Positions 1 through 44,814 of a stretch of 64,000 bases of DNA are shown here, piece after piece. Every line of letters begins with the position of its first letter. The first letter of the stretch is position 1. Position numbers and translations under genes: made by a program. Under the pieces are notes generated by a model that saw nothing but the letters and a program-made list of their open reading frames with translations, was not told the origin of the DNA and searched no databases. Origin of the DNA: an uncultured Gemmatimonadales bacterium (GTDB taxonomy: Bacteria > Gemmatimonadota > Gemmatimonadetes > Gemmatimonadales > GWC2-71-9); NCBI GenBank assembly GCA_963821525.1, contig CAWGED010000019.1, forward strand, positions 576,001-640,000. Reading direction: 5' to 3'.

Positions 1-995
1 CGCTCCTGGCCGGGGTTCGGCGGGAGGCCATCGGCGAGGCGCAGTACGATCTCTCGGCGGATGGCACACTGCTCTACGCACCCGGCGCGGACGCGACGAT
101 CGGCAGGATGGTCAGCCTTCGGGCTGGAGGAACGCCGCAGCCGCTGCCGGTGGAGACGGCAGACTTCCAGCGCTACGACCTGAGCCGCGATCGGCGCTGG
201 CTGGCGGCGGCGGTACAGGCCACCGAGGGCCTTGAATTGCGGGTCTACGATCTGCGCGACGGGCAGCATTTCACCTGGCTCAAGGGCGGAAGTGGTGCGC
301 CATCCGATCTGGAGTCCCGGATGGAGGGTGGCTGCTGGTGGCGGTGCGCGATTCCACACGCTTTACCATCCTCCGCGGCACACCAAGCTCGGGGGCCCGG
401 CCGGACACGCTGGCGAGCTGGGAGTTCGACCGCGCGAATCCCGATCCGATCGACCTGCACGACGATCATCTGGCGGTGGCGCAGAACTGGGCCGGGTCCA
501 CCGCCATGCGCTTCGACCCCAGTCTCGCCCATCCCACCTTCGACACCGTGCTCACCGGCGGGCGTTTCCCGTCGGTGTCCCGAACGGGAAGCTCCTGCTG
601 TACCAGACACTCGAGGGAGGCAGGATCGAGGTCACCTCCTTCCCGGTGAGTGGGCGCCGCTGGCAGCTGGCCTCGGACGGCGCCGAGCCGCTCTGGCTCT
701 CGGCCACCGAGGTGCTGTACCGCAAGGGAGTCTCCTGGTACCTGGCCCGGCTCAATCCGGAGACCGGCGAGCCCGCCGGCGCCGCGACCTTCTGGGCCCG
801 CGATCCGCGCTTCTCCGACACCTCGGGCTGGTCCAACCGGCCGTCGCACGACGGAGGGATCATCTACGTCCAGGGTCCGGGAGAAGTGACGGCGTCGTAC
901 TTCGCGTGATCCCGAACTGGGTGGAACAGATGAAGGCGGCGGTGGACGCGCTCCATGAGCGGCTCGGCGGGCGAAAATCGACAATAATTGCCTGA
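1..995 (+). CDS. K0: C-terminal beta-propeller part of a probable Ser/Thr kinase-propeller protein (5'-truncated by window, frameshifted)
   Basis: Fragments in several frames (DLSRDRRWLA, RWQLASDGAEPLW, VIPNWVEQMK) match the C-terminus of the double-propeller kinases downstream. The kinase domain itself is outside the window. Confidence 0.6.
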   Translation, partial: LLAGVRREAIGEAQYDLSADGTLLYAPGADATIGRMVSLRAGGTPQPLPVETADFQRYDLSRDRRWLAAAVQATEGLELRVYDLRDGQHFTWLKGGSGAPSDLESRMEGGCWWRCAIPHALPSSAAHQARGPGRTRWRAGSSTARIPIRSTCTTIIWRWRRTGPGPPPCASTPVSPIPPSTPCSPAGVSRRCPEREAPAVPDTRGRQDRGHLLPGEWAPLAAGLGRRRAALALGHRGAVPQGSLLVPGPAQSGDRRARRRRDLLGPRSALLRHLGLVQPAVARRRDHLRPGSGRSDGVVLRVIPNWVEQMKAAVDALHERLGGRKSTIIA

Positions 996-1006
996 CACCT
1001 GACACC

Positions 1007-3645
1007 TTGACCATCGACCTCGACTATCGACCGCCCTCGCCGACCGCTACCGCATCGAGCGGGAGCTGGGCCAGGGCGGCATGGCCACCGTGTATCTCGC
1101 CCAGGACCTGAAGCACGACCGAAGGTCGCGATCAAGGTGCTGCGTCCCGAACTCGCCGCCGTGATCGGGGCCGACCGGTTCCTCTCCGAGATCAAGACCA
1201 CGGCCAACCTGCAGCATCCGCACATTCTGCCGCTCTTCGACTCCGGGCGACGTGCCGAGTCGGCCGACCTCGTTCTACGTCATGCCGTTCATCGAGGGCG
1301 AGAGCCTCGCGACCGGCTCAATCGGGAGAAGCAGCTCCCGATCACTGATGCGGTACGGATCGCCACCGAAGTCGCCTCCGCCCTCGACTACGCCCACCGG
1401 CACGGCGTCATCCACCGCGACATCAAGCCGGAGAACATCCTGCTGCACGATGGACGCGCGCTGGTGGCCGACTTCGGAATTGCGCTGGCCGCGAGCAAAG
1501 CCGGCGGCAGCCGGATGACCGAGACCGGGATGTCGCTCGGCACGCCGACACTACATGAGCCCCGAGCAGGCCATGGGTCAGCGGGAAATCACCGCCCGGA
1601 GCGACATCTATGCCCTCGGTGCGATGACCTACGAGATGCTGACCGGCGAGCCGCCGTTCAGCGGACCCACCGCGCAGGCCATCGTGGCGAAGGTGCTCAC
1701 CGAGGAGCCGCGGCCGCTGATCCCCCGCCGCCACACCATCCCCCCCGACGTAGAAGAGGCCGTCCTGACCGCGTTGGAGAAATTGCCCGCGGATCGGTTC
1801 GATTCGGTCGCGGAGTTCGCCCGGGCGATCGGCGGCGATGGCAAAGGAGTGCGCTCGCCTGGAAAGCGAAGGCCGGTCCCGGCTCCCCGCCCATCCCGTC
1901 AGCTCTACCTGGCCCTCGCCCTCGGATCAGTCGCGCTGCTCGCGGCAGGCTTCTACGCCGGTTCGCGCCGGGGCGCGAGCGATTCACCCATCAAGGGACT
2001 CGGTGTCTCCACCAAGGTCACCTGGGATCCTGGGCTCGAGATCGAGCCGGCGCTCTCTCCGGATGGTAAATACCTGGCGTACGCCGCCGGCAACACGACC
2101 AGCCTGCGGATCTACGTGCGGCAAGTGAATGGCGGACGCCCGATTCCGCTCACCGAGGATTCGCTGGAGGTGCAGACCAATCCGTCCTGGTCGGGGGACG
2201 GCTCCCGCATTCTGTTCCTTTCCAACGGCGGGGTATTCAGCGCACCTTCCGCCGGCGGGGCGGCCCGACCGGAGATGCGCTCTCCACCGGGACTGCAGAT
2301 CATCTCCGCGGTCATGTCGCCCGATGGACAGACTCTCGGATATGCCGCAGGGGACTCGGTCTATCTGCGCGATGCGTCGGGGGCCGGCCGGCCTCTGGCC
2401 CGAGTGGCCGAGGCCTCGCTGTGCCAGTGGTCTCCCCGAGGCGAACTATTGGCCTGTGCGTCCGGGAATTCCTTCTACTCACGGGTCGGCGCGTTCTTCG
2501 GCAACCTGTCGCCCAGCCGGGTGACCGTGATCCGGGTGAAGGACGGGAGGACGACGACGGTAACTGACAGTACCTCCATCAATCAGAGCCCGGTCTGGTC
2601 TCCCGATGGGAAATGGCTGTACTACGTCTCGAGCAACCAGGGGCCGAGAGACGTCTTCGCGATTCGGATCGGGCGTGACGGCCGACCGATCGGCGCAGCG
2701 ACGCGGCTTACTGCGGGGCTCGGGGCCCAGTCAATCGCGCTGTCCGGAGACGGGCGCCGGATCGCGTACGCTGCATACGTGGGAACCTCGAACATCTGGT
2801 CGCTGCCGTTTCCGCCCAACGGCGAGACCCAGGCGAACGCGGTGCCGGTCACCAGCGGATCGCAGACCATCGAAGGCGGCCGGCCCTCGGTCGACGGCAC
2901 CTGGCTCTACTATCCATCAGATGTCAGTGGCAACTCCGAATTGTACCGGATGCGGCTGCCACACGGAGAGCCGGAGCAGTTGACCACCGATCCCAGCGAC
3001 GATTTCTCCCCCAAACCTTCGCCTGATGGCCGTGAGCTCGCCTTCCATTCGTGGCGCGCGGGCACCCGCGATATCTATGTGCTCCCGCTCGATGGTGGAC
3101 CGATACAGCAGGTAACCTCCACCCCACTCCAGGAGTCAGGGCCCGACTGGTCGCCCGACGGGCGAGCGCTGGCCTACGCCATGTTTGGCCAGCCGGGAGG
3201 CATTCGAGTCGTGCGGCGGAATACGGCCGGCGTTTGGGGCACGCCGGTGGAGCGAAGCTCGGCTGGGGTCTTGCCGGAGTGGTCTCCCGACGGGCGCTGG
3301 ATCGCTTATACCAGCACATTCCTGGGTGGCTCACTCTTCATCGTTGGTCCTGATTCTGGGGCGCCCCGGCTGGTCCTGGATTCCACCAATACCTGGGGCA
3401 TCCGGGCGCAGATGGCACATTGGAGCCGGGACAGCCGGACCCTCTATTTCAAGTCGGGGGATGCCAGGGGGAACGCCGCCTTCTGGGCCATTCCAGTGAC
3501 CGGAGGCACCCCGCGTCTGCTCATCCGGTTCGACGATCCCACTCGTCCCGCCTCTCGCCCCGAATGGTTCATCGGCAAAGGCCGGATGTATTTCGCGATT
3601 CAGGATCGGCAGAGTGACATCTGGGTGATGGAGGTGCGGAGGTGA
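1007..3645 (+). CDS. K1: Ser/Thr kinase - TM - TolB/PD40 beta-propeller (frameshifts in 5' part)
   Basis: GQGGMATV G-loop, [11 protein letters not shown] and MSPEQ across ORFs 1137/1252/1555. TM LYLALALGSVALLAAGFY, repeated WSPDG motifs, C-terminal SDIWV. Confidence 0.9.
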
Positions 3646-3734
3646 AAGGGGACTTGTCCAACATCTCGCCGTCCCTCACCACCGCCCTCGCCGACCGCTA
3701 CATGATCGAGCGAGAGCTGGGTCAGGGGGGCATG
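3642..3734 (+). pseudogene. Kinase 5' stub (…[21 protein letters not shown]) truncated by a palindromic element
   Basis: GTG overlaps the K1 stop. Kinase similarity ends at GQGGM, just before the hairpin element at 3746. Confidence 0.85.
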
Positions 3735-3745
3735 GTGCGCCGGTC

Positions 3746-3847
3746 CGTCGCTAAAGCGACGACTCGGCTATTGTCGCTAAAGCGACGTGACTTGGGAGGT
3801 AGGAGTCACTTCAGTGACATCAGCCGAGTCGCGGCTTGAGCCGCGGA
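3746..3847. mobile_element. Miniature non-autonomous derivative of the IS200-like element (both ends, no transposase)
   Basis: 3746-3786 matches the reverse complement of 14579-14619, and 3805-3847 matches the reverse complement of 14081-14124. Only 18 nt separate the two ends. Confidence 0.8.
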
Positions 3848-3883
3848 CCGGCAGACTATAGACTCGCAACACACGACCGGCGA

Positions 3884-6236
3884 TTGACCATCGACTCTCG
3901 ACTCGCCGCCGCCCTCGCCGACCGCTACCGGATCGAGCGGGAGCTGGGCCAGGGCGGTATGGCGACGGTGTATCTCGCCCAGGACCTGAAGCACGACCGC
4001 AAGGTCGCGGTAAAAGTGCTGCGACCCGAGCTGGCCGCGGTGCTCGGCGCCGAGCGATTCCTGGCTGAGATCAAGGTCACCGCCAATCTCCAGCATCCCA
4101 ACTTGCTGCCGCTCTTCGACTCGGGTGAAGCGGGTGGCTTCCTCTACTACGTCATGCCGTACGTCGAGGGAGAGACGCTGCGAAGCCGCCTCGAGCGCGA
4201 GCGGCAACTCCCGGTCGACGAGACCTCCCGCCTGATCACACTGATGGCCGGAGCACTCGACTATGCCCATGCCCGCGGGGTGATCCATCGCGATCTCAAG
4301 CCGGAAAACATCCTGCTCCAGGCCGGCCAGCCGGTGATCGCCGACTTCGGCATCGCACTGGCGGTGGCCCAGGCCGGCGGCTCCCGGGTTACCGAGACCG
4401 GACTCTCACTCGGCACTCCGCACTACATGAGCCCGGAGCAGGCGGCCGGCGAGCGCAACATCGATGCGAAATCCGACCAATACGCGCTCGCGGCGGTGAC
4501 CTACGAGATGTTGAGCGGCGAGCCGCCTCACACCGGCCCCACTGCCCAGGCCATCATCGCCCGGATGATGACGGAGAAGCCCCGGAGCCTGCAGGCGACC
4601 CGTTCCAACGTGCCGGTGGGGGTGGATCTCGCCGTCGGGCGGGCGTTGGCCAAGTCACCGGCCGACCGGTTCCCGTCCTGCGACGCCTTTGCCCAGGCGC
4701 TGGTTGCCGGCATGACCTCGGGTGCGGCTACTGTCGCCGACGCGGCTGTCCCACGGCGTCGCGGGCGATGGGTCGCCGCCGCCATCGCCCTGGTTGTGTT
4801 GGCTGGTGCGGCCCTGGGACTGACACGCTATCTGGGTGGAAGCGCCAGCGACCATTGATTCGATTGCGGTCCTCCCGCTCGACAACTATTCCGCCGACTC
4901 CACCCAGGACTACTTCGCCGAGGGGATGACGGATGAGCTGACCAGCGACCTCGCCATGATCAGCCAGTTGCGGGTCACCTCGCGCGGGTCGGCGATGCAG
5001 TTCAAAGGCAGGAATCGCCCGCCGACCCCGGAGATCGCGAAGGCCCTCGATGTCGACGCCGTTGTGGAGGGCTCAGTGTCCCGCTCCGGTGATCGGGTGA
5101 GGATCACCGCCCAGCTGATCGATGCCAGGGCCGACCGGCATCTTTGGGCCGAGACCTTCGAGCGCAATTCGAGCGACGTACTGGCACTCCAGGCCGAGCT
5201 GGCGTCGGCCATCGCCAGTGCGATCAACGTGCGGCTGACGCCGGGGGAGCAGTCCCGCCTCTCGGCTGCGCCGACCGTGGATCCGGGAGCCCACGACGCC
5301 TACCTCAAGGGGCGGTTCTTCTTCAATCGTCCGAGCGACGAGAACCTGCAGAAGGCCATCGTACAGTTCAACGAGGCGATCAAGCTGAGCCCGAACTTTG
5401 CCCCGGCGTATTCGGGGCTCTCGGATGCCTACACCTGGGCGGCCTACAACGAGGGATTCATTCGTGCCAGCGAAGCGAAGCCCCTGGCGAAAGCCGCCGC
5501 GGAACGGGCGGTTCAGCTCGACAGCCTGTCGGCGGAAGCCCACACCTCGCTGGGGGTCTACCTCGCTTGGTTCGACTACGACTGGGACCGAGGCGAGCGG
5601 GAACTCCGTCAGGCGATCGCCCTCAATCCCAGCTACGCCTACGCGCACGACCAGCTGAACCAGCTGCTGGGAATCATCGGTCGCTTCGACGAGGCGATTG
5701 CCGAGGGCCAACGGGCCATCGCGCTCGATCCACTGTCGCCCTCGATCCTGGAGGACCTGGCGACGACGTTGATCTACGCCGGCAAGGCGGCGTCGGCGCT
5801 GGAGCTTGCGAAAAAAGCCGCGGAGCTCGACCCGACCTTCTTCTTCCCGCCGGCTACGGAGGGGATTCTGGCGCTCCAGACCGGCAACTACCGCGAGGCC
5901 ATCGCGAAGTTTGAGCGCTCGCGGGCCCTGGATGCCCCGCCGTTCGTGACCGCCTACCTGGCGTACGCGTAGGGCATCTCCGGTGACCGCAGCCGCGCGA
6001 TGGCGACGCTCGGAGAACTCCAGAAGATGTCGCACGGGGAGGAGGCAGCCCCGTTCAACCTGGCACTGGTGTATCTCGGCCTCGGCGATCACGCGCGCGC
6101 GCTCGACTATCTCGAGCAGGCACATGCGGCCAGCTCGGAGATGCTGGTCTGGCTCAAGGTGGACCGGATCTACGATCCGCTGCGGTCGGAGCCGCGCTTC
6201 GTAGCCCTGATGAAGCGCCTGAACTTCGTCCAATGA
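3884..6236 (+). CDS. K2: Ser/Thr kinase - TM - TolB-N-like domain - TPR repeats (frameshift ~4850, in-frame TAG at 5970)
   Basis: HRDLKPEN and DFG motifs, TM WVAAAIALVVLAGAALGL, IAVLPL…DYFAEGMTDEL, TPR helices, C-terminal DPLRSEPRF. Confidence 0.9.
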
Positions 6237-6282: not shown

Positions 6283-6360
6283 CGGCAATCGGCAATCGAT
6301 AACGGGCAATAGCCTGACAACCTGACACCTGACACCTTGACCATCGACCCTCGACTATCT
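6283..6360. repeat. Heptamer repeat ladder (GGCAATC)n-(CCTGACA)n-(ACCATCG-like)n
   Basis: Visible 7-nt periodicity. The same succession of units occurs at ~977-1030 and ~11405-11470. Confidence 0.75.
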
Positions 6361-8619
6361 TCCGCGCTCGCCGATCGCTACCGGCTCGAGCGGGAGCTGG
6401 GCCAAGGCGGCATGGCGACAGTGTATCTGGCCGAGGATCTCAAGCACCGACGAAAGGTCGCGGTGAAGGTGCTGAAACCCGACCTGGCCGCGGCACTCGG
6501 CGCTGAACGCTTCCTGCGCGAAATCGAGACAACCGCGAATCTCCGCCACCCTCACATCCTGCCGTTGCTTCGACTCGGGCAGGTCATGGCGTCGACGGAC
6601 GATCTTTCTCTTACTACGTGATGCCGCTGGTGGAAGGAGAGTCCTTGCGCGATCGACTGAAGCGGGAGACGCAGCTGCCAATCCCGGACACGGTGGCGAT
6701 CATTCCGCGAAGTAGCCGACGCGCTGGCCTACGCGCACGGTCGAGGCGTGATCCATCGCGATATCAAGCCGGAGAACATTCTGCTCGAACGGGGCCATGC
6801 CGTCGTCGCAGATTTCGGTATCGCGCGTGCGGTGAGCACTGCGGGCGGCGAGAACCTCACCCAGACCGGCATGTCGCGTGGGCACTGCCGGCCTACATGA
6901 GTCCGGAGCAGGCCCTGGCCGATCAATACGCTCGACGCCCGAAGCGACCAGTACAGCTCTGGGCTGCTGTCCTCTACGAGTGCCTGACCGGCGAGATCCC
7001 CTTCGCCGGCAGCGCCGGTGCCATGCTGGGCGCAGCGGATAACCGAGTGCACCACCGTCCGCGCGCAACAAGCGGCCGGAGGTTACCGCCCAGGTTGACC
7101 ACGCCCTGTCGTACGCGCATTGAGCCACCGATCCATCGGCGCGGTTTGCCTCCTGCCAGGAACTGGCCGCGGCGCTGGTGGCGCCACACTTCGCTCCCAG
7201 GCCGGGTGCGCGGCACTGGCGCGGCGAGGCATCGTTGTCCTGCCATTCGCCAACCGGAGTCCCGACGCCGACAATGAATACTTCAGCGACGGGCTCACCG
7301 AGGAGATCATCGCCGACCTCGCCCGGATCAAGGCGCTGAGTGTCATCTCCCGCACCTCGGCGATGCAACTCAAGGGGACCGACAAGAACGTGAAGGTCAT
7401 CGGCCGGGAACTCGGCGTGCGCTACGTGCTGGAAGGAAGCGTGCGGAAGGCCGGCTCGAGCCTCAGGATCACCGCACAACTGGTCGATGCCGACACCGAC
7501 ACACCGCTCTGGTCGGAGAAGTACAGCGGCACCATGGACGACGTGTTCGAGGTGCAGGAGCGGGTGTCCCGCGAAATCGTGAAGGCGCTCGGCGTGACGC
7601 TGAGTCCCGACGAGGACCGTCACCTGGCGCAACGGCCGATCGAGAACGTGCAAGCGTTCGAGCTGTACCTGCAGGCGCGTCTCGAGTTCCGGCGCTACGG
7701 CGCCTCGATCGACCACGGCTTGGCGTTGCTCAACCGGGCCATCGAGATCGAAGGCGAAACTCCGCCGCTTCAGGCACTCGTCGCCTGGGCCAAAGTCTCC
7801 CTGGTCCGCTCCGGCCATGCACCCGATGGGCGACCGCTGGACGAAGCCGAGGCGGTGGCGAAGGCCCTGATCCTGCGTGCTCCGGAGGCGCCCTACGGCC
7901 ACGCCCTGCTGGGATTCATCGGCTATGAGCGCTGCCGAATGGCCGATGCGGTGCGCCATCTGCGGGCCGCACTCGAACGCGAACCCAATGATGCCGATGC
8001 CTTTTTCTTTCTCGGCGTTTCCTACATCGCAGCCGGCCAGGAGGCTCTGGCTGCGGAGACAGCGGCTCGGCTGATGGCATCCGATCCACTTTCACCATTG
8101 GGGTGGATGTTGACCGGCGTCGTGCCGTGGTTCATGGGGCGGCTCGGGGAGGGATTGCCAAGCCTGGTCCGAGCGGTGGAGCTGGACCCCGAAAACCTCC
8201 TGGCGCGTTGGTGCCTTGGGTACACCCATACCCTCGTGGGAGATGTGGAGGCGGGGACGAAGCATGCCGAGGTGCTCCGAACCAAATCGCCGGACCTGCC
8301 TTACACTCGCCATCTTCTGGCCCTGGTCGCGGCACTCTCCGGCCAGAGCGAAGCCGCTCTCAAACACCTGGCATCGGTGGAAGGTCTCGACGGCCACCAC
8401 AAGATGCATCTGGCCGAGGCCTTCGCGATGGCCGGTGACATCGACCGGGCACTCTCCCTGCTCGAGGAGGCGGTCAACCAGGGCTTCCATCCCTATCGCT
8501 TCATCGCGGAGTATTGTCCCTTCATGGCTCCGCTCCGCGGATTGCCGCGGTTCGAGGCGCTTGCCGCCCGCGCCCAGCGACTCACCGCGGAGTTCGGTAT
8601 CGCGGGAGGTAACTCATGA
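6337..8619 (+). CDS. K3: Ser/Thr kinase - TolB-N-like - TPR, no TM seen (multiple frameshifts in kinase part)
   Basis: [15 protein letters not shown]…[16 protein letters not shown] is readable in the DNA at ~6754-6777. [27 protein letters not shown] followed by TPRs. Confidence 0.85.
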
Positions 8620-8646: not shown

Positions 8647-8695
8647 CCGGTCCGTCGCTAAAGCGACGACTCGGCTATTGTCGCTAAAGCGACGT
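8647..8695 (+). repeat. REP-like double hairpin (GTCGCTAAAGCGAC x2), a single end of the IS200-like element
   Basis: 49 bp identical to 3740-3788. Confidence 0.85.
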
Positions 8696-8714: not shown

Positions 8715-11374
8715 TTGACCATAGACCATCGACTATCGACCGCGCTGTCTGACCGCTACCGCATCGAGCGGGAGTTGGGCCAGGGCGGCATGGCCACGGT
8801 CTACCTCGCCGAGGATCTCCGAGCATGGCCGCAAGGTGGCTATCAAGGTCCTCCGCCCCGAGCTCGCCGCGTCGATCGGGGCCGAACGGTTTCTGCGGGA
8901 GATCAAGACGATCGCGAAGCTGCAGCATCCCCACATTCTCGGTCTCATTGATTCCGGAGAGGTCGAGGGGGCCGCGTACTACGTGATGCCCTTCGTGGAA
9001 GGGGAATCGCTGCGGGACCGGCTCGATCGCGAGAAGCAGCTCGCCATCACCGACGCGGTCCGCATAGCCACCGAGGTCGCCTCGGCCCTCGACTATGCGC
9101 ACCGCCACGGGGTGATCCACCGCGACATCAAGCCCGAGAACATCCTGCTGCACGATGGCCAGGCCCTGGTCGCGGACTTCGGGATCGCACTCGCCGTGAC
9201 TCAGGCCGGGCGGCACCCGGATGACCGAGACCGGCCTGTCGCTCGGCACGCCGCACTACATGAGCCCCGAGCAGGCGATGGGCGAGCGCGAGCTAACCCC
9301 GCGGAGCGATGTCTACGCCCTCGGTTGTCTGACCTTCGAGATGCTCGCTGGAGACCCGCCCTTCACCGGGCAGCACCGCACAAGCCATCGTCGCCAAGGT
9401 CCTGAGTGAGAAACCGCCTTCGATCCGGCGGCTGCGCGACCGGGTTCCCGAATCGGTCGAAGAGGCGGTGTTCGTCGCCCTCGAGAAGCTTCCGGCTGAT
9501 CGGTTCGCGACCGCCGCCGAGTTTGCTACAGCACTGAACGGAGGCGGCACCAGCGCCCCGCGCCACGGCAGCACCAGTGCGAGGAGCCGAATCGCCGAGC
9601 CGCCGAGCCGTCGAGTAGCATTCCTCCTGCTCCTCGCCCTCATGCTCGGCGCTGGCTGGTTCCTCGGGCGTCGAAATAGCAACGCCGCCGCAGGACCGCC
9701 GTCGAGTCGTCTCGCGATGTTGTCACCCGCTCTGGGAGGGTCTGGGGCCGGCGGATTGCATCGCCAGCTGACGCTCACGCCCGACGGTTCCGCGGTGGTC
9801 TATGTCGGCGCTTCGGTTCGACAGGGGGCGACCACACTGTGGATTCAGCGAATGGACCAGCTCGAGCCCGCGCTGATTCCTGGGAGCGAACTCCTTCTCG
9901 CCCCTCAAGTGTCGCCCGACGGACGATGGCTCGCGGCCCAGAACGTCGCCGGCGATGTCATCCGCTTCCCCATGCAGGGCAGCACTGCCCAGCCGGCCCC
10001 TGTGTCCCGCGGGTTCTCCTTCTTTGCCTGGGGTCCCGACGGGAGTCTGTGGATTACCCGGGCACCGTTCCGCACAGTCGAGCGGGTGGCCCAAGGAAGT
10101 GATTCACTCGAGGTGCGCATCAAGGACCTGAGTCGAGGCCAGTACATCCAACAGATACTCGATGATGGGAGGCGCGCTGTCGTAGTTCAGGGCGACGGAT
10201 CTTCGAGTGGCCCATGCTTCATTATGGACCTCGCAACCGGCCGGTTGACCCCGCTGATCGAAACGCCCATCACCGCCGCGCGCTATGCCGCGGGATATCT
10301 GATTTACGCCCGGCCGGATGGAACCCTCCTCGCCGCTCCGCTCGATGCGCGTCAGACTCGAATCACCGGCGAGGCAGTTACCGTCGCAGAGGGAGTCTCC
10401 GTGACCGGAGGCGGCGACGCCCAGTTCGCGGTCGCGCCCAGCGGCACCTTGGTCTACGTCCCCGAGGAGCCGAGGTCACTGGTGTTCGTCGACCGGTCCG
10501 GATCGGCGCGGTCGGCGACCGAAGCGCGCCAGAACTTCCATGCCCCCTCGTTTTCGCCCGATGGGCGCCGCGTGTCGGTGGATTTCGTTTCCGCCGACGG
10601 CCGGGACGTGTGGATCCTCGATCTGGACCAGGGGACGCTTTCCGTGGTACCTTCGATCGCGACGGACACGACGCGGTGTGGACCAGAGACGGAAAGCAGA
10701 TCACCTACACGTCGTACCGCTCCGGCGTCTTCGGGGTCTATCGGACCCGCCCGGGCAGCGGCGCGCCCGCCGAATCGCTGCTGGCCTCGCCGTCGCTGGG
10801 CTACACCGGCCAGTGGCTGCCCGACGGTAGCGGGCTCGTGACCGTGACCTTCGACCTTCAGCCCCGATCGGGTCAGGACATCGGCCTCGTCACCCACGGC
10901 GGCCACGGACCGATCGAGCCGATCGTCGCCACGCCGTATCGGGAGTTGTACCCCTCCCTTTCTCCCGATGGCCGCTGGCTGGCGTTCGTCTCCGATCAGT
11001 CGGGACAGAGTCGAGTGTATCTGCGCCCGCTCCAGGGAGACGGTGATCAAGTTCAGATCTCCCAGGGCAACGCCGATGAGCCGGTCTGGGGGCCGGATAG
11101 CCGGGAGCTGTTCTATCGCGCCACCGATACCGGGCGACCCGAGCTGATTGCGGCCAGGCTCGAAACCACTCCGACCCTTCGAGTCCTTGAGCGGCGCCCG
11201 CTCTTCTCGGTCGAGAACTACGTACCGGCCACGCCACACGCCAGCTATGCCATCTCACCCGATGGCAAGACCTTCGTGATGGTCCAGCGCAACCCGGCGA
11301 GCCGCATCATGGTAATCCAGAATCTGCCGGGTCTGGTGGGCCGGCTGCGCGACGCGCAGAGTGCGCCCCATTGA
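8715..11374 (+). CDS. K4: Ser/Thr kinase - TM - double beta-propeller (frameshifted)
   Basis: Kinase motifs in ORFs 8715/8836/9221. TM VAFLLLLALMLGAGWFL, SPDGRWLAF repeats, C-terminal IMVIQNL. Confidence 0.9.
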
Positions 11375-14619: not shown

Positions 14620-14647
14620 AGCGCGGGCGGCGATCCTGAGAATCACG

Positions 14648-17350: not shown

Positions 17351-17351
17351 G

Positions 17352-25220: not shown

Positions 25221-25266
25221 GGCGATTTCAAATTGGCAAATTTCAAGTTTGCAAATTTCTGATTTC

Positions 25267-31585: not shown

Positions 31586-31677
31586 CCTCCGCACTCGCCG
31601 ACCGCTACCGCATAGAGCGGGACCTGAAGCACCACCACAAGGTGGCGATCAGAGCTCCAGCCGAACTCGCGTCGTAA
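31561..31677 (+). pseudogene. Kinase 5' stub with the Gly-rich loop deleted
   Basis: Reads [31 protein letters not shown]…; [14 protein letters not shown] (14 codons) is missing. Confidence 0.8.
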
Positions 31678-31958: not shown

Positions 31959-34634
<2,676 letters not shown>

Positions 34635-34647: not shown

Positions 34648-37300
34648 GTGACTACTGAGCACCTCAGGGCAAGCCTCGCCGACCGCTACCGCATCGAGCG
34701 GGAGTTGGGCCAGGGCGGCATGGCGACGGTCTACCTCGCCGAGGACCTGAAGCACCGGCGTCGGGTCGCCATCAAGGTGCTCCGGCCGGAGCTCGCGGCG
34801 GTGATCGGCGCCGAGCGGTTCGTGCGGGAGATCCAGACCATCGCGGCACTCCAGCATCCCCACATCCTGGGTCTCATCGACTGGGGCGAGGTCAACGGGA
34901 CCGCCTACTACGTGATGCCGTTCATCGAAGGCGAATCGCTGCGCGACCGGATCACCCGCGAGAAGCAGTTGTCCATCGCCGATTCGGTACGGATCGCGAC
35001 TGAAGTAGCCAGTGCCCTCGATTACGCCCACCGTCACGGCGTGATCCACCGCGATATCAAGCCCGAGAACATCCTGATGCACGACGGCCAGGCTCTGGTG
35101 GCCGACTTCGGGATTGCACTCGCCGTGAGCAGCGCCGGCGGCTCCCGGATGACCGAGACCGGCATGTCGCTCGGCACCCCGCACTACATGAGCCCCGAGC
35201 AAGCGATGGGCGAACGAGCGATCACCGCCCGCTCCGACATCTATGCCTTGGGCTGTGTGACCTACGAGATGCTGACCGGGGATCCGCCCTTCACCGGCAG
35301 CACCGCGCAGGCGATCGTCGCCAAGATGATGACCGAGAAGCCGATCGCGCCGTCGCGAGTGCGGGACACGGTTCCGCCGGCTGTCGAAGACGCAGTGCTC
35401 ACCGCCCTCGCCAAGCTTCCGGCCGATCGGTTCACCTCCGCCGCGGAATTCGCCACCGCCCTGCGGGATCCCGCACGAATCACCCGAGCCTCGACCTCCA
35501 CCCCGATCACCGCGCCGACGACCTGCGCCGCGATGGTCCGTCCGCTCGGCGCTGCCCTGGGCGCTGGCTGCCGTCGTCGCTGTGCTGGCCCTGGTGAGCT
35601 GGTCCCGCACTCGGACCACGACCAGCCCCGTCACTCGCTTCGAAATACGTCCCGCCTTCGGCACCCAGTTTGGATATCCGATCAACGGAGTGGCGATGTA
35701 CCTCGCACTCTCGCCGGATGGCCGCCAGGTGATCTACACCGGAAGCCGCGGGGGAAGCGACTGGGCGCTTTACATCCGGAATCTCGACCAACTGGATTCC
35801 CGCCTGCTCCCCGGAACTGAAGGTGCGGTCGCGCCGGAATTCTCCCCCGACGGGAAATGGATCGCCTTCGGCGCACCGGACGGGAGCCTCAAGAAGCTCA
35901 TGGTGGACGGGACCTCGCTCACCACGCTTTGCCAGGTTGATGTGAGTGGCATCGCGGGCCTGACCTGGACCTCCAACCGTGAGGTGGTCTTTACCCGAGT
36001 GAATCTCACGGGGCGCGGGCTGTGGCGGGTGCCGGCCGACGGGGGGCAGCCCGTCGAGTTCTCCCAATTCGATTCGGCGAGCGGGGAGCGACTGCAACTC
36101 TCACCGCGCTCGACGCCCGACGGGAAGCTGGTGTTCTACAGCAGCACGAGGGCCAGCGTTCTGGATCTCAAGATCGGCGTCGCCTCCACCGCCAGCGGGA
36201 AGACCAAGGTGTTCACCGATCTTCTCGGCGCGCGCGTGCTCGGCTTCTCCGACGGCTTCCTGCTCTATGTGCGGATCGATGGCGCGCTCATGGCGGTACC
36301 CTTCGACCCCGGTACTCTCAAGATCGGAGCACCGCTCCAGATCCTCGACAGCATCGCGACGCGTGGCTGGCAGTCGCCGGCGGCGCTTTCCGCCAATGGG
36401 GCCCTGCTCTACCAGCGCGGGGGACTGACCAGCCAGCTGGTGCGGGTGGATCAGCACGGTGACGCGCAGCTCCTTCTCGATTCGCCGCGGATGTACGCTC
36501 ACCCTCGCCTCTCTCCCGATGGGCGACGCATCGCCTTCGAAGCCCAGGCCGGCGCGGGCAACGAGATCTGGATCGCCGATCTTGCGTCGCAGACCGCGGA
36601 GCGCCTCACCCGGGAGGGATTCAACGACCGCCCCGAATGGACTCCGGACGGAAGCCGGGTGATGTACGTATCCGGACGAACCAAGGCGAATTCGATCTGG
36701 TGGCAACCGGCCGATGGCAGCGGTACCGCGGAGATGCTCTTTCAAGGACCGGATGCGATTCGAGAAGCGGTCTTCGCCCACGGTGGTGAGGAAATCGTAT
36801 ATCGGATGGATACGCCGGACAGCGGCCGGGATATTTATCGGCTCCCGCTTGGACAGAAAAAACCGGTGCCGATTCTGACCAACATTGATGACGACAAGCA
36901 GCCCCGGGTCTCGCCCGATGGAAAGTGGCTCGCCTATATCTCGAACGCGTCCGGGCGGGAAGAAGTGTATATCAGGCCGCTGGCCGGTGGACCGCGCACC
37001 ACGGTCTCGCGCGACGGCGGAGGAGAGCCGCTCTGGTCCCCCGACGGGAAACGTCTCTACTACCGGGTCGGCGCTCGACTGATGGCCGCCGGTATCGTCA
37101 CCACACCATCGATCTCCGTCACTTCGCGGGACACGCTGTTCGAGGGGCCCTACATCACCGATCCATGGCACCCGAATTACGATGTCTGGCCGGATGGCAA
37201 GAGCTTCGTGATGCTGCGGCCGGTCGAGGAGAACCGGCAGCTGGTCATGGTGGTGAATTGGATCAGGGAATTGCGGCAGCGGACCGGGAAGGCCAAGTAA
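34648..37300 (+). CDS. K13: Ser/Thr kinase - TM - double beta-propeller (frameshift ~35520-35580)
   Basis: ORFs 34648 and 35582 join into one gene; C-terminal VVNWIREL. Confidence 0.92.
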
Positions 37301-37414: not shown

Positions 37415-38293
37415 ATGACCCAGCCTGTCATCGCGCCGGACACCACGGCGCGGAAGCCACGGGACGACGAAATCGACGTCTATGGGATCACCCATCCCGG
37501 CAAAGTGCGCAAGGACAATCAGGACCATTTTCTGATCTGTTCGCTCCGACCCGGGGTCGTCGTCCACCACACCAGCCTGCCCGACACGGGGCGGTGGTCC
37601 GGGGCGGAGCGATTAGCGTTTCTCGCCATGGTCGCCGATGGGGTGGGCGGGAGCGCCATGGGCGAGGAGGCGAGCCGACTGGCGGTCGCCGGCATCACGG
37701 ACTATGTGACCCAGTGCGTGCACACCTACTACACCGCCGACTCCAGCAATGACGCCGGCTTTGCCGACGCGCTCGTCGAGGCGGCGATGCAAGTGCACGC
37801 GCGAATCGTGGAGCAGACCCGGGAAGCGGACGACCCGCGAGGTGGGTCCACCACGCTGACCCTGTGGATTGGCGTGTGGCCCCGGGCCTACCTGCTGCAG
37901 GTGGGAGACAGTCGCTGCTACACGCTCCGGGAAGGAGTCCTCACCCAGATCTCACGGGACCAGACGATGGCCCAGGAGCTGATCGACGCCGGCGTGCTCA
38001 AGCGCACCGAAGTCCGTCGTACCCGCTGGGCGCACGTGCTCTCCAGCTCCATCGGAGGACACCAGACCGCGCCGGTGGTTACCCGCATGGACCAGGAGTG
38101 GGGCAGAGTCGGCCTTCTCTGCAGCGACGGTCTCACCAAACACGTCTCGGACGAACGGATCGCCGAGCAGCTGCGGAATATGAGTTCGGCCAAGCAGGTC
38201 TGCGAGGCGCTGCTGCAGGATGCTCTGGATGATGGCGGGACCGACAACATCACCATCCTGGTGGGACGACCGGTTCGGAAAGACCTCGCGTGA
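37415..38293 (+). CDS. PP2C/PPM-family Ser/Thr protein phosphatase (soluble, PrpC/Stp1-like)
   Basis: GKVRKDNQD, VADGVGG, VGDSRCY, LLCSDGL and GGTDNIT motifs. Confidence 0.95.
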   Translation: MTQPVIAPDTTARKPRDDEIDVYGITHPGKVRKDNQDHFLICSLRPGVVVHHTSLPDTGRWSGAERLAFLAMVADGVGGSAMGEEASRLAVAGITDYVTQCVHTYYTADSSNDAGFADALVEAAMQVHARIVEQTREADDPRGGSTTLTLWIGVWPRAYLLQVGDSRCYTLREGVLTQISRDQTMAQELIDAGVLKRTEVRRTRWAHVLSSSIGGHQTAPVVTRMDQEWGRVGLLCSDGLTKHVSDERIAEQLRNMSSAKQVCEALLQDALDDGGTDNITILVGRPVRKDLA

Positions 38294-38361
38294 CGGATGC
38301 CTCTCCGGCGTTGACCGCCGCCCTCGCCGACCGTTACCGCATTCTGCTGGAGCGGAAATGA
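38290..38361 (+). pseudogene. Kinase 5' stub (MTDASPALTAALADRYRILLERK*) bridging phosphatase and dehydratase
   Basis: GTG overlaps the PP2C stop, and its TGA overlaps the dehydratase ATG. Confidence 0.8.
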
Positions 38362-39334
38362 AAACCACCGAGTCCGTTCGTCCCATAGACCTCGCCGAGA
38401 TTCGCGAGGCCCAACGTCGCATCGCGGGAACCATCTTCCGTACGCCGCTGGTCCGTCTCGAGCTGGGACCCGGCTTTCCCGACATTCGGCTCAAACTCGA
38501 AGTGCTTCAGCCCATCAATGCCTACAAGCTGCGCGGCGCGGCCAACGCGGTCGCCATGCTGTCCGACTCGGAACGAAAGCGTGGGGTCTGGACGATCAGC
38601 GCCGGCAACGCGGGACAGGGAGTCGCCTACGCCGCGAGAGCAGCCGGTGTCCCCTGCACCGTTGTCGCGATCGAAACCGCTCCCGCCTCAAAGCTCGAAC
38701 GGATGAAGGCGCTCGGCGCCAAACTGGTGCTGGTGCCCTACGAGGTGGCCTGGAAGGCGCTCGACGAGCGGGCCTAGCCGGGGTCGAAGGAACCTTCATT
38801 CACCCCTTCGATGACGACAATTTCATCGCCGGGCACGCGACGATGGGGCTGGAGATTCTGGAGGACGCGCCGGAGACGGCGGCAGTTATCGCCGCCATTG
38901 GTGGCGGTGGACTCATCACGGGCGTCGCGAGTGCCATGAGAGCCATCAAACCCGAGATCAAGGTGTGGGGCGCCGAACCGGAGACCGCTGCTCCGCTGTC
39001 GCTCTCCCTCGCTAGCGGGTCCCCTCAGTCATTCAAGGACTGGAAGGCATCGTTCGTGGATGGTGCCGGCGGACAGAGTGTCTTCCCCCGGATGTGGGAG
39101 CGGATGAAACCGGTGGTGGATGGTTGTATTGTTGTAACGCTGGACGAGACGAAACGGGCCATGCGATTGATGGCCGAGAAGGCGCGAATCATCGCGGAAG
39201 GCGCGGGATGCTTGCCGGTCGCGGCCGCTCTGACCGGGAAAGCGGGACAAGGTCCCATCGTCGCCATCGTCTCCGGCGGGAATATCGACCTGCAGAAATT
39301 CTCCGATCTGATTGGCACGACGCCGCGTGCATGA
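38358..39334 (+). CDS. PLP-dependent threonine/serine dehydratase (or serine racemase-like), no ACT domain; interrupted ~38775
   Basis: LKLEVLQPINAYKLRGA PLP-lysine motif, SAGNAGQG, IGGGGL, VSGGNID. Confidence 0.9.
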
Positions 39335-39457: not shown

Positions 39458-42151
39458 TTGACCATCGACCATCGACTATCGACCGCTTTGTCCGACCGCT
39501 ACCGCATCGAGCGGGAGCTGGGCCAGGGCGGCATGGCCACCGTCTACCTGGCCCAGGACCTGAGGCACGACCGCAGAGTCGCGGTGAAAGTCCTGCGCCC
39601 CGAGCTGGCCGCCGTCATCGGCGCCGAGCGGTTCCTGAGCGAGATCAAGACCACCGCGAACCTGCAGCACCCGCACATCCTCCCGCTCTTCGATTCCGGC
39701 GCCGCCGACAGCTTCCTCTTCTACGTCATGCCGTTCGTCGAAGGCGAGTCACTGCGCGATCGGCTGAGCCGGGAGAAGCAGCTGCCGATCCCGGACGCGG
39801 TACGGATCGCCACCGAAGTCTGGGTGCCCTGGACTACGCCCACCGCCACGGCGTCATCCATCGGGACATCAAGCCGGAAAACATCCTCCTGCACGATGGC
39901 CGGGCGCTGGTCGCGGACTTCGGGATTGCGCTGGCAGCCAGCAAGGCGGGCGGCACTCGTATGACCGAGACCGGCATGAGCCTCGGCACGCCGATCTACA
40001 TGAGCCCCGAGCAGGCGATGGGGGAACGGGAGATCACCGCGCGGAGCGATGTGTACGCCCTCGGCTGCGTGCTGTACGAAATGCTGGTGGGAGAGCCGCC
40101 ATTCACCGGGCCCACCGCGCAGGCGATTGTTGCCAAGGTGGTCACCGAGGAGCCGCGCGCGCTAAGACCCAAGCGACACACCATCCCAGCGAATGTCGAA
40201 GCGGCGACGATGACGGCACTCGAGAAGCTGCCGGCCGACCGGTTCGCCAGCGCTGCGGAGTTCGCTGCGGCGCTGGGCGAGGCGTCGTACGGCACCGAGC
40301 GTGTCACGGCCACGACGACCGCCGCAGCCCGGCGAGACACACAGCGCCGAGGGCGGTATCTCCCTGCAGTGCTGGCTGCGCTGGGAGGTCTGGCGCTCGG
40401 CGCATCGCTCCTGAGCATGCTGCGCTCTCCGGTCTCGGCACCCGTCACCCGCTATGGTCTGTCGCTCCCCCCGGACCAGGAACCGGTGCGGGAATGGCAG
40501 GTGATCCCCTCTCCGGACGGGTCTCAGATCGCCTACGTGGGCCCGGCCGAACGCACGACGCAAATCTGGATCAAGCGACGGGACCGTTATGAAGCTTCTC
40601 CGCTCCCGGGGACGCTTGGGGTGACCAACTTCACTTGGTCTCCCGACGGCGCGGTGGATCGCGTTCACCCAAGGCACTCAACTCAAGAAGCAGCCGGTCG
40701 TAGGAGGAACCGCGACCACGCTGGCTGATAACGTGTCAGCCTTTCCAGGAATCGCCTGGCTGGATGACGGGAATATCGTCTTCATTCGAGCCGGCGGAAT
40801 CGCGCTCATGCGAGTGGCGGAAAGCGGCGGGGAGCCCGCCGAGGTCCTGACGGATAGCACCGGAATTGGCCTGCTCACCCCATTGCCCGGAGGGCGAGGC
40901 GTGCTCTTTGGTCGCTGCCGGCGCAACTGCTCCCAGTTGGATCTCTGGGTGGTCGACCTGAAGTCGAGCAAGTCGCACCAGGTAGTTCCCGGTGCGGTCA
41001 TGGGACACTACGTGAAGACCGGGCACCTCCTGTTCGTCCGGCCGGATGGCGGGCTGTTCGCGGCACCGTTCAGCCTGCGCTCTCTGGATCTGACTGGCCC
41101 GGCGGTTCCCGTCCTGGATAGTGTAGCGGTGCTCGGTGGAGTCTACCCGCTGTTCGCGGTTTCCTCCTCGGGTACCTTGGTGATGCGTTATGGAGCGGCA
41201 CCGGCAGCAGGGCAGCAGTTTTCCATGGTGTGGGTGGACCGCACCGGGCGCGTGACGCCGGTCGATTCGGGTTGGACCCTTCAGTTTACCAACTTTGGCG
41301 AAAACTACGGGTGGGCCCTGTCGCCCGACGGCAAGCGATTGGCCCTTGGCCTCGCGACAGACGCCGGCGACGACATCTGGGTCAAGCAGCTTCCGCGAGG
41401 TCCCTTGTCACGGGTCTCCTATGACGGGGCGTCGGAATACCGGCCTCGGTGGATGCCGAACGGGCGCGAAATCATGTTCGGGTCCAACCGGGCCGGCACC
41501 GGGACCGGGGGGCTGTACTCACGACCTGCCGACGGCACCGGTTCGGATTCGCTCATCCTGCGCGCGGAACAGGGGATCTTCGAGAGCGTCTGGTCACCGG
41601 ACGGCCGCTGGCTCCTGTTCCGGACTGGTGGCACCGTGGGCCAGATGGGAGGGCGGGACATCGTAGGTATTCGTCCCGGCGTCGACAGTGCGCCGGTGCC
41701 GGTGGTGGTGACCCCCTATGACGAAGAAGCGATCGCGATCTCACCCGACGGACGATGGCTGGCCTACGAGTCCAACGAAACCGGGAAAACCGAGGTGTAC
41801 CTCCGGCCATTTCCAAACACCAACAGCGGCAAGTGGCAGATCTCGAATGGCGGAGGAGTCGCTCCGCTCTGGGCGAGGACCGGTCGCGAACTTTTCTACG
41901 TCAGCGCTGCGCGCGACATGATGACCGCCACTATCGGCCCCGGCGTCCAGCCGACGATCGGGACCCCACGGATTCTCTTTCATCTCCGGGATGACCTCTA
42001 TATGACGCCTACGGAGTTCTACACCCCGTTCGATGTCGGTCCGGACGGCCGCTTCATCATGGCGCGAAGCGAGACCCCCGAAGCAATTTTTAACGCCCCG
42101 CTGGTCGTGGTGGACAACTGGTTCGAGGAGCTGAGGCAGCGAACCCATTGA
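39458..42151 (+). CDS. K14: Ser/Thr kinase - TM - double beta-propeller (frameshifts ~39820, ~40650)
   Basis: ORFs 39458, 39961 and 40733 join into one gene; C-terminal VVDNWFEEL. Confidence 0.92.
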
Positions 42152-44814
42152 CCATCCACCCCAGACTCTCGACCGCCCTCGCCGACCGCTACCGCATCGA
42201 GCGGGAGCTGGGCCAGGGCGGCATGGCCACCGTCTATCTCGCCCACGATGTGCGGCACGATCGGAAGGTGGCCCTCAAGGTTCTCCGACCAGAGCTGGCC
42301 GCCGTAATCGGAGCCGAGCGATTCCTCGCCGAGATCAAGACCACGGCCAACCTGCAGCATCCGCACATTCTGTCGTTGTTCGATTCGGGAGAAGCGGACG
42401 GGACGGTGTTCTATGTCATGCCCTACGTCGAGGGCGAGTCGCTGCGCGACCGACTCTCGCGCGAGCATCAGTTGCCGGTCGAAGAGGCAATCCAGCTCGC
42501 GCGCGAAGTGGCCGACGCGCTGCAGTACGCGCACAATCACCACGTAATCCACCGCGACATCAAGCCGGAAAACATCCTGCTGCACGGCGGGCACGCCCTG
42601 GTCGCCGACTTCGGCATCGCACTCGCCGTGAGCCGCTCCGACGGCGGGACCCGGATGACCGAAACCGGGATGTCGCTCGGCACCCCGCACTACATGAGCC
42701 CCGAGCAGGCGATGGGAGAGCGGGAGATCACCGGCAAGAGCGACGTGTACGCGCTTGGTTGTGTGCTGTACGAGATGCTGGTGGGCGAGCCGCCATTCAC
42801 CGGCCCCACCGTGCAGGCGATGGTGGCGCGGGTGATGACCGAGGAGCCTCGCTCACTCACCATCCAGCGGAAGACGATTCCGCCGCACGTCGAGGCCTCG
42901 GTCCGGAAAGCGCTGCAGAAGCTGTCGGCGGATCGCTTCGCCTCCCCGGCGGCCTTTGCCGACGCACTGGTCCATCCCGAGAGCATGGCGCTTCCGACCT
43001 CGGCCGGGATGCCGGCCGCTTCCCCTGCCTCATCGGTGGCGTGGAAGCGCCGGTTTGTGATAGCCGCGGCTCTGGGCACTCTCGCGACTGTAGCGGCGAT
43101 CTTGGCCTCGATACGAAGTGCACGCATCGGGTCCGCCGGCCCAGACTGGTCCTACCTGAATTTCGGAGACAGCCTCCAGGTCCAGACCAACCTGCCCGCT
43201 CTCGCCTATTCGCCCGACGGCTCCACCATCGTGATCAAGAGCGACGTCCAGAACGGTCGGCTCTGGCTCAAGCGTCGAGCAGATCTCAACCCCACGCCGA
43301 TTCCGGGCACGGAACGCGCCACCAGTCCGGTGTTCTCCCCCGACGGGAAGTGGATCGCCTTCATTCGGGATGGACAAGTCAGAAAGGTCGGGGTCGATGG
43401 CGGTGGCGCCGTCACCCTCGCCGACACGGCCTTCAACCTCGCCCTCACCTGGCTCGATGACGGTTCGCTGATCTACAGCCCCACCCTCTTCAAGCTCAGC
43501 CGCATCAGCTCCGCTGGGGGGCCGTCAACCGTGGTCCTCGAAGATTCGACGCTCTTCGGATTGGCTCCGAGTGGGTTTACCCCGCTGCCCGGTGGGCGCG
43601 GGATCCTCCTCACTTCCTGCAATGCTGGCTGCGTCTCGATGACGCTCTTGGTCCTGGACCTGAAGACCCGGACGCAGCACACCCTGCTCCCGGACGTGGC
43701 CCAGGGCTGGTACCTCCCTGGCGGCAGGCTGCTGTATGTGCGTCGTGATGGCACCGCGATGGTGGCCCCCTTCGATCTCGATAAACTGCAGATCACGGGC
43801 GCGGCCGTCCCGGTGCTCGAGGGTGTGCTGGTCAGCGTGGGGTTTGCCCAGCTTGCATGGTCGCCATCCGGGTCGCTGCTCTACGTGCGTGGCGAAGGGC
43901 TTTCGCCTGACCAGCTGCTGTTCCGGGTCACCCGAGACGGGGCTGTGGCTCCCCTCGACACGTCCTGGGTCGCGCAGTTCACCTCGCCGGTGGTGTCCCG
44001 GGATGGACGTCGAATCGCGGTGGGTGTCGGCGGCACGGTCAGCGCTCTCAACATCTGGGTCAGGTCGATGGACCGGGGGCCGGCGACCCGGCTCACGTTC
44101 GGCGGCCAGGATCGTCGGCCGGCCTGGTCACCCGACGGACGGCTCATCGCCTTTGTGCGGGACACCGCTGCGGGCAGCGTCGTGATGGCGCGGCCGGCTG
44201 ACGGGGCTGGCTCCGACCGGCTATTAGCACGGCTCGACCGGATCGTCCAGGAGGTAGCCTGGTCGCCGGACGGCCAATGGCTCGTGCTCCGCACCGACAA
44301 CGGCGCGGCGGGCGCGGGCGACCTCGTCGGGGTGCGGACCAGCGGGGACACCACTCCAGTGTCCCTTGTCGCGAGCCCCTTCACCGAGCTCCACCCCGCC
44401 GTCTCACCCGACGGCCGCTGGCTGGCGTACTGCTCCAACGAGTCGGGGCGCAATGAGATATACGTGCGGCCCTTCCCGAATACCGATGGCGGGCGCTGGC
44501 AGGTTTCGAGCGGCACCGGGAACGAGCCGCGGTGGTCGGGTGACGGGCGGGAGCTGTTCTACCTCGACGACACTCGCCAGCTGATGGCCACTCGCATTGG
44601 CTCGGGGCCTTCTTTCTCGACCGGTGAAACCCGGCGAATCCTCGACGCCTCCGGATTCACCGGCCAGGTCTTCCATCAATCGTATGACGTGGCTCCCGAT
44701 GGACGGTCGTTCCTGTTCGTCGGGCCCCGGAAATCCCGGGCGAACTCGCGGGGCCCGCAGGTAGTGCGGGTGGACAACTGGTTCGCCGATCTCAAGGCAC
44801 GGGTAAAGCGGTGA
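42148..44814 (+). CDS. K15: Ser/Thr kinase - TM - double beta-propeller (intact)
   Basis: 888-aa ORF whose start overlaps the K14 stop; C-terminal VDNWFADL. Confidence 0.95.
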   Translation: MTIHPRLSTALADRYRIERELGQGGMATVYLAHDVRHDRKVALKVLRPELAAVIGAERFLAEIKTTANLQHPHILSLFDSGEADGTVFYVMPYVEGESLRDRLSREHQLPVEEAIQLAREVADALQYAHNHHVIHRDIKPENILLHGGHALVADFGIALAVSRSDGGTRMTETGMSLGTPHYMSPEQAMGEREITGKSDVYALGCVLYEMLVGEPPFTGPTVQAMVARVMTEEPRSLTIQRKTIPPHVEASVRKALQKLSADRFASPAAFADALVHPESMALPTSAGMPAASPASSVAWKRRFVIAAALGTLATVAAILASIRSARIGSAGPDWSYLNFGDSLQVQTNLPALAYSPDGSTIVIKSDVQNGRLWLKRRADLNPTPIPGTERATSPVFSPDGKWIAFIRDGQVRKVGVDGGGAVTLADTAFNLALTWLDDGSLIYSPTLFKLSRISSAGGPSTVVLEDSTLFGLAPSGFTPLPGGRGILLTSCNAGCVSMTLLVLDLKTRTQHTLLPDVAQGWYLPGGRLLYVRRDGTAMVAPFDLDKLQITGAAVPVLEGVLVSVGFAQLAWSPSGSLLYVRGEGLSPDQLLFRVTRDGAVAPLDTSWVAQFTSPVVSRDGRRIAVGVGGTVSALNIWVRSMDRGPATRLTFGGQDRRPAWSPDGRLIAFVRDTAAGSVVMARPADGAGSDRLLARLDRIVQEVAWSPDGQWLVLRTDNGAAGAGDLVGVRTSGDTTPVSLVASPFTELHPAVSPDGRWLAYCSNESGRNEIYVRPFPNTDGGRWQVSSGTGNEPRWSGDGRELFYLDDTRQLMATRIGSGPSFSTGETRRILDASGFTGQVFHQSYDVAPDGRSFLFVGPRKSRANSRGPQVVRVDNWFADLKARVKR

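Follow-up and report, generated by a model that had tools for sequence, protein, structure and literature searches.

The first 44,814 positions of a 64,000-nucleotide stretch (the window, C19:576001-640000) in the 4.33-Mb, 19-contig genome G000 of an uncultured Gemmatimonadales bacterium carry a tandem array of Hanks-type Ser/Thr kinases with C-terminal sensor domains. The array is probably a lineage-typical repertoire of single-pass receptor kinases, which evolves by birth, death and exchange of genes through homologous recombination. The kinase motifs, the variable content and order of the genes, transfer between species, purifying selection on the sensors, crossovers at a shared 5' block and the incongruence of kinases and sensors across genera are grounded in the data.

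Fifteen HRDxKxxN motifs, all on the plus strand, were located in window 1-44814 (HRD at 1413, 4286, 6754, 9118, 11864, 15077, 17921, 20629, 22999, 25728, 28494, 32361, 35047, 39859 and 42550), in agreement with the 15 co-oriented kinase genes of the preliminary description. The latter had also assigned HRDxKPxN, DFG and PEQ motifs to every kinase; HRDxKxxN, DFG and PEQ, together with the Gly-loop, are indeed present in 15/15, while VAxK is readable in 14, the exception being K5, where the lysine motif is unreadable at a frameshift. PF00069 matches all seven array kinase domains that were scanned whole (E ≤ 2e-45), and by motifs and Pkinase match the array kinases are Hanks-type. The tail of a further kinase, K0, is seen at the left edge of the window as described, and extension of the contig leftwards to C19:546325 adds six kinases, so that the array of 15 or more kinases over ~45 kb is real but was sized too small: it comprises 21 kinases in ~75 kb. 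These 75 kb hold 21 of the 84 HRD motifs of the genome, against 1.45 expected. The array kinase paralogues are mutually 44-82% identical. Stop/start overlaps at K7/K8, at K14/K15 and between K11 and the next gene, and a single PP2C phosphatase gene inside the array (37415..38293, plus strand), were seen as reported. The three C-terminal classes hold as well, namely the PD40/TolB propeller, the double propeller with a V.NW tail, and the TolB-N-like domain with or without TPR. Such kinases occur in 41/41 genomes searched (a tally that includes the unpublished G018), with arrays of 4-11 in the stretches examined from other genera; arrays of this type are found order-wide, and 69 of the 70 loci returned by a similarity search with K15 belong to Gemmatimonadota, many of them to Gemmatimonadales.

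A single hydrophobic segment (hydropathy score ≥ 1.5), ~160 residues past the HRD, follows the kinase in 72/77 intact proteins and in 11/11 of the G000 array. This topology suggests a cytoplasmic kinase, one transmembrane (TM) helix and a C-terminal domain located in the periplasm; the term receptor-like therefore suits the 11 intact array proteins but not K3, in which no TM segment is present. The extracellular structure, whose prediction had been proposed earlier, was obtained for the K15 sensor with 121 of 125 available sequences, and the model (predicted local distance difference test, pLDDT, 92.5, as compared to only 40.7 for the single-sequence fold) displays two six-bladed TolB-like propellers. 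The second propeller matches TolB (Z 28.3, root-mean-square deviation 2.7, 257 aligned), and the top of the Foldseek list consists of tandem-propeller chains such as LRP6 (10-12% identity, TM-score ~0.35). Alignment of single-propeller chains across the model range 1-550 points to the V.NW tail as the part that closes the first propeller. The closest characterised proteins to the array kinases are PknB of Mycobacterium tuberculosis, the nearest solved kinase structure (E 1.5e-59), and PknD of the same species, which shares the order of kinase, TM segment and extracytoplasmic six-bladed propeller (Z 20.9, root-mean-square deviation 3.0, 238 aligned). Unlike these single genes, the array comprises 21 variable ones. 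NF033483 (PknB/Stk1) remains below its cut-off in the array kinases (258-315 bits vs 450), no PASTA is among the families listed for the array proteins, and, in place of the single NHL-type propeller of the PknD kind, there are PD40 repeats and two TolB/PD40 propellers, which lie closer to TolB than to PknD by Z-score (28.3 vs 20.9).

Comparison with relatives revealed a changing repertoire, as the preliminary description had supposed, and not the fixed gene content that would have spoken against it. In G003, a member of the same genus whose flanking sequence is 90-91% identical, the locus comprises 19 kinases; 14 sensors are common to both genomes, 7 are confined to G000 and 5 to G003. The gene that replaces K5 in G003 matches it at 97% over the initial 110 bases and at 76% or less beyond, and K14 is also replaced by another gene. 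The order K2-K6-K9-K13-PP2C-K14-K15-dnaK of G000 becomes PP2C-K9...K13-K2...K14-K6-dnaK in the congener G004, in each case on one strand; the G004 array has a 30-kb insertion, and more orthologues lie in a second array. The sensors of K0, K14 and K7 are 96.7, 95.4 and 94.7% identical to those of G004, the flanks of which are 82-87% identical, and for K4 the sensor identity to G003 reaches 99.6%. Since sensor identity exceeds flank identity, these values point to the movement of three sensors (K0, K14, K7) between species, and of K4 likewise. Relative to G004, K7 and K14 show a synonymous divergence (dS) of 0.44-0.46 in the kinase and 0.12-0.14 in the sensor; the kinase is more diverged than the sensor, so that the crossover lay inside the gene.

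Kinases had been described as highly similar and sensors as strongly diverged, and median identities among the 11 intact array proteins (62% for kinases, 12% for sensors) agree with this, as do those of the nine propeller array proteins (73 and 18%); in other genera, paralogues reach 93-95% identity in the kinase with 27-32% in the sensor. Across the 77 intact proteins, the nearest kinase is the same partner in 14/14 cases at a sensor identity of 80% or more, and the partner is kept in 6/26 at 50-80%. Congruent kinase and sensor trees, which would have contradicted a variable repertoire, were not obtained: of the 31 strong sensor splits in separate trees of 55 propeller proteins, 20 are contradicted by a strong split of the kinase tree, the sensors making lineages that span genera and the kinases often clustering by genome. 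The short-term unit of exchange thus appears to be the whole gene, because the kinase partner is kept in 14/14 of the closest sensors, and the sequences indicate reassortment of kinases and sensors across genera together with a few interspecies transfers. The notion of interchangeable sensor modules therefore calls for refinement, since over the short term whole genes move. The ratio of nonsynonymous to synonymous substitution rates (dN/dS), taken over the whole sensor domain, is 0.00-0.21 in 18/19 pairs, the K0 pair (0.52) being a mosaic; in these 19 whole-domain values dN/dS is neither above 1 nor raised in sensors, giving no sign of diversifying selection. The strong divergence of the sensors hence appears to reflect old, conserved lineages under purifying selection rather than rapid diversification.

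The ~100-bp 5' block of the kinases, in which exchanged genes often cross over, contains the longest exact stretches shared among paralogues (up to 65 bp), and the same-codon (synonymous) excess among paralogues of this genus peaks in codons 1-20 (1.42 vs 1.00-1.25 elsewhere). Folding of the block is weak and variable (z -2.3 and -1.1 for K15; -7.6 to -21.0 kcal/mol for 26 copies) and was not used as evidence. The conserved first ~35 codons would constitute a common crossover site, and whatever lies between two 5' blocks would behave as a cassette, be it a whole kinase gene, a cargo gene, or REPIN, leader and fresh start as a unit of 220-270 bp. Some of the six kinase-start stubs of the G000 array are deletion remnants: before the pyridoxal phosphate (PLP)-dependent enzyme gene, where G001 and G004 have an intact kinase, its start and last 27 codons survive in G003, and the G000 stub at this place (38290..38361, plus strand) likewise joins the start and last codons of the deleted kinase and is coupled to both neighbours. 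Other stubs precede a 115-bp hairpin built from two inverted repetitive extragenic palindromes (REPs) with a CCGA foot, then a leader and the fresh start of an intact kinase, the stub-REPIN units being 220-272 bp long. One such stub runs to ELGQGGM and is followed by the hairpin at 3738-3852 (z -5.8), the two together occupying 3654..3852 (plus strand). Long-hairpin folding of the REPINs is strong (z -5.8 and -6.4, with 0/200 shuffles as stable). A half REPIN lies behind a degenerate stub at 8647..8695, and 3/6 stubs, among them that at 31565..31677 (plus strand), have no REP.

Before K6, a Y1 (HUH) transposase of the IS200/REP-associated type (14035..14523, minus strand; PF01797, 5e-18) lies between its REPs. 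Its frame passes through the left REP, which together with a stub occupies 13994..14125 (plus strand), a stretch spanned by independent contigs, and the right REP (14580..14622, plus strand) consists of a small hairpin, a CCGA foot and a hairpin. The Y1 protein scores 59.9 bits with the IS200 model (cut-off 55) and 22.4 with the RAYT model (cut-off 80); the layout, in which inverted hairpins with a CnGA foot flank an HUH/Y1 gene, is that of class 3 TnpA-Y1 REPtrons as outlined in PMC6006769, and the folding of a REP doublet as one long hairpin is as outlined for REPINs in PMC3116915. Unlike the elements of these outlines, those found here are few (2-10 REP copies per genome) and, instead of being scattered over random extragenic sites, keep to duplicated kinase starts in a single register, 21 of 27 REP matches in five genomes being at kinase starts.

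This fixed register admits a bolder account, in which transposase and REPs form a site-specific, gene-restoring element that cuts a fixed spot in kinase 5' ends, inserts with a replacement start and drives excision and reordering; we regard it as possible, if unlikely. The REP stem begins +50 from the Asp codon of the stub in 12/13 junctions (two pairs of which may be orthologous), the thirteenth having a 4-bp deletion, and the register extends to the unit with the transposase, although its REP ends are unlike those of the REPIN. The five congeners all have stub-REPIN units, and one of the same layout is present in a metagenome contig, the only metagenome match; 9/9 full-length REPIN matches in the five congeners sit behind stubs, and TnpA-REP enzymes are described as cleaving and rejoining single-stranded DNA near REPs (PMC8266576). 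However, one ancestral junction spread by 5'-block recombination gives a fixed register too, the strict junction was detected in 3/251 family genomes, all of one genus, whereas arrays are order-wide, most gene boundaries as well as half of the G000 stubs are free of REPs, and the G003 array lacks the transposase unit. The register is thus explained most simply by one junction spread through recombination, and REP units probably spread as passengers that leave the next kinase intact. An order-wide junction pattern failed to match G000 itself and was uninformative, and duplication of a gene's own start as the origin of long stubs is not general, the own gene having ranked first in 2/8 rankable junctions.

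A still more far-reaching version, a programmed integron-like receptor library in which the first 35 kinase codons act as recombination site and a domesticated class 3 Y1 transposase with REPINs targets a fixed nucleotide, supplies a start, inserts, excises and reorders genes and lets species trade sensors, seems doubtful, with a small chance of being right. The array resembles integron cassette arrays in its co-oriented units that are gained, lost and reordered, and differs from them in consisting of kilobase paralogues instead of mixed cassettes. An integron cassette array proper was rejected: a hidden Markov model of attC built from the genome's own sites gives 0 matches in the array vs 63 on contig C3, a generic attC pattern gives 1 site in the array (both strands) vs 38 strand-hits on C3, and there is no integrase beside the array, the only IntI above cut-off being on C3. 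A chromosomal integron with integrase and many attC sites is located at G000:C3 ~6600-38900, and attC-like matches also occur on C10 and near C19:511400. Outside the array, REPs of the family described above also stand singly beside apparent tRNA genes at L191 (G000:C14) and L131 (G001:C207).

Several observations weigh against a repertoire shaped by recombination among functional receptors. The kinase trees are short and biased by guanine-cytosine content, the dS baseline taken from the flanks scatters widely (median 0.17, range 0.04-0.95, n=14), and outside this genus the 5' codon excess is not pronounced (1.21 vs 1.05-1.23). In three junctions (G003 m2, L168, G001 C85) the stub and the gene behind it have gene-specific bases in common, and plain cassette swapping would account for these only with local conversion. 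Nine of the 15 window kinases are broken by 1-bp indels in this assembly, K2 also by an in-frame TAG at ~5970, and indel density at K3-K5 (2.7/kb vs ~0.3 in the flanks) could include real decay. The earlier statement that all 15 genes are full-length was too generous, an open frame being present in K6, K7, K10, K11, K12 and K15 only. Most of the breaks nevertheless look like long-read sequencing errors, because different genes are broken in G003 (K1, K2, K4, K8 and K9 open, K6 and K7 broken), dnaK just downstream of the array is likewise split in three pieces, and contigs from four public short-read runs correct at least seven indels, at 1019, 1121 and 1548 in K1, 4847 in K2, and 12757, 12786 and 13448 in K5. 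K3 carries many indels in both G000 and G003 and is possibly a pseudogene, and the TAG of K2 may likewise be genuine.

The same frames bear on a largely neutral, recombination-prone gene dump, in which paralogues accumulate and decay and the variation is non-adaptive. The broken frames, the in-frame stop, the deletion remnants and the damage to K3 in both genomes favour such a dump, which is nonetheless improbable in view of the differing sets of broken genes, the equally split dnaK, the short-read corrections, purifying selection on sensors and kinases, and the persistence of sensor lineages across genera. The indels, and the tendency of short-read contigs to break at 5' blocks, would also be compatible with a misassembly of dispersed paralogues fused at the conserved 5' block. 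This is scarcely credible: exact repeats among kinase parts do not exceed 65 bp, G003 is collinear with G000 through the array and both flanks, the G004 array ends at the same dnaK flank, and gap-free independent contigs from separate studies cover 2349-3687 (K1 to stub) and 14044-14704 (stub, transposase and K6). Joints in short-read contigs were disregarded, 14 of the 15 listed having sides shorter than 30 bases.

Turning to function, TolB-type propellers bind proteins. For this reason, and because the array carries on its left side cargo genes for a propeller-bearing S9-type peptidase (L002:11233-13389) and an acylase-like protein (L001:10564-13020), the periplasmic ligands of the sensors may be peptides, proteins or envelope fragments. 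Ligand binding would activate the kinase, and the signal may pass to FHA proteins or SARP-type regulators and be reset by PP2C. Six FHA domains are present in the genome, and a SARP/BTAD-like regulator (L001:18360-19154) lies directly upstream of an array kinase in an AfsR/AfsK-like pairing; of its eight homologues in the genome, three are within 2.5 kb of a kinase. The one PP2C gene in the array does not establish a shared circuit, because other PP2C homologues exist in the genome and the kinase paralogues of the array are no more than 44-82% identical. An innate-immune locus, in which sensors would detect phage or competitor proteins and kinases would trigger dormancy or death, is highly improbable; patchy content and interspecies transfer do resemble defence islands, and TPR and propeller sensors and a cytoplasmic K3 would suit it, but diversifying selection is not apparent in the sensors, MAD6 and PglW models, in a search that did not extend to PADLOC, are far below cut-off, and the cargo consists of a peptidase, an acylase, a phosphatase and a PLP enzyme.

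The remaining genes of the array all lie on the plus strand. The 3' end of K0 (1..983; kinase-TM-double propeller), whose start is left of the window behind a stub and a REPIN, is followed by K1 (1007..3645; kinase-TM-TolB/PD40 double propeller), K2 (3884..6236; kinase-TM-TolB-N-like-TPR; orthologue open in G003), K3 (6337..8619; kinase-TolB-N-like-TPR), K4 (8715..11374; kinase-TM-double propeller) and K5 (11446..13868; kinase-TM-TolB-N-like-TPR), which G003 replaces behind the same 5' block. K6 (14648..17350) and K7 (17520..20194; sensor nearer to G004 than to G003) are kinase-TM-double propeller proteins with a V.NW tail. K8 (20191..22541; kinase-TM-TolB-N-like-TPR), the start of which overlaps the K7 stop, has an indel, as K9 (22597..25270; kinase-TM-TolB/PD40 propeller) has several, and K10 (25329..27959; kinase-TM-TolB/PD40 double propeller) is absent from G003. 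K11 (28089..29558), with TM and a short TolB-N-like domain, has the same short form in G001 and is coupled to an overlapping PD40 double-propeller gene with a lipoprotein-like N-terminus (29555..31486). The pair is conserved in G001, the one orthologous pair found, and may form a split receptor. K12 (31959..34634) and K13 (34648..37300; indel) are kinase-TM-double propeller proteins, and beyond PP2C come the PLP-dependent (PALP) enzyme (38358..39334; indel), K14 (39458..42151; kinase-TM-double propeller) and K15 (42148..44814; kinase-TM-two six-bladed propellers). The stubs, REP/REPIN elements, Y1 transposase, propeller lipoprotein and PLP enzyme had been missed in the preliminary description.

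A TTG start codon and first codons built from a 7-base repeat are used at many kinase starts (1007, 3884, 6337, 11446, 13994, 17520, 22597, 31959 and 39458); this heptamer-like start motif is enriched in the array (10/20 genome copies), whereas heptamer microsatellites generally are not array-specific (6.7 vs 6.3 per 100 kb). Promoter and terminator scans of window 1-20000 were at chance (1 vs 2.0 and 7 vs 7.1), and a single transcript of the array is thereby neither shown nor excluded. To the right, a frameshifted gene for an exported protein with a bacterial immunoglobulin-like domain (44945-46964), without alignment to G003, lies between K15 and dnaK; an extracytoplasmic function (ECF) sigma factor, a CBM48/AMPK glycogen-binding protein and two genes without assigned function occupy 53146-55916; and a lone kinase with a TolB-N-like/TPR tail (56007-58164), 14 kb right of the array, keeps its position in G003 and G004. 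An exported metallophosphoesterase-like gene, identified by eye from its translation, is found between the K13 orthologue and PP2C in G003 and before PP2C in G001, and is absent from G000. A ~30-kb opposite-strand island inside the G004 kinase array (G004:C1 ~1396000-1425000) apparently carries polysaccharide export genes.

Expanded kinase families with few phosphatases are reported for myxobacteria (99 and 317 kinases, kinase:phosphatase ~7:1), with very low kinase-phosphatase co-organisation (PMC2887360). In G000, with 84 HRD motifs in 4.3 Mb, kinases are likewise many, but one in four belongs to a single co-oriented array that also contains a PP2C gene. Plant receptor-like kinase clusters also consist of clustered paralogues with similar kinases and varied ectodomains, and LRP5/6 ectodomains share the tandem six-bladed propellers of the K15 model by fold. 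In the array, the kinase is N-terminal and no diversifying selection is seen, and the low identity and TM-score to LRP6 given above leave the proposed likeness to eukaryotic receptor-kinase clusters an analogy only. A literature search, which excluded most subscription journals and supplements, returned, among the papers listed, none on Gemmatimonadota kinase expansions or such arrays.

Almost nothing has been described of signalling in Gemmatimonadota, which abound in soil. The array is a large and clear example of a recombining receptor-kinase repertoire with REP passengers, and offers defined, old and conserved sensor lineages on near-interchangeable kinases, which can be tested singly. The fixed-register REP units and the transposase make the site choice and entry of REPINs testable on one short substrate. 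The array further presents a natural case in which a bacterial receptor repertoire changes by cassette-like exchange without an integrase.

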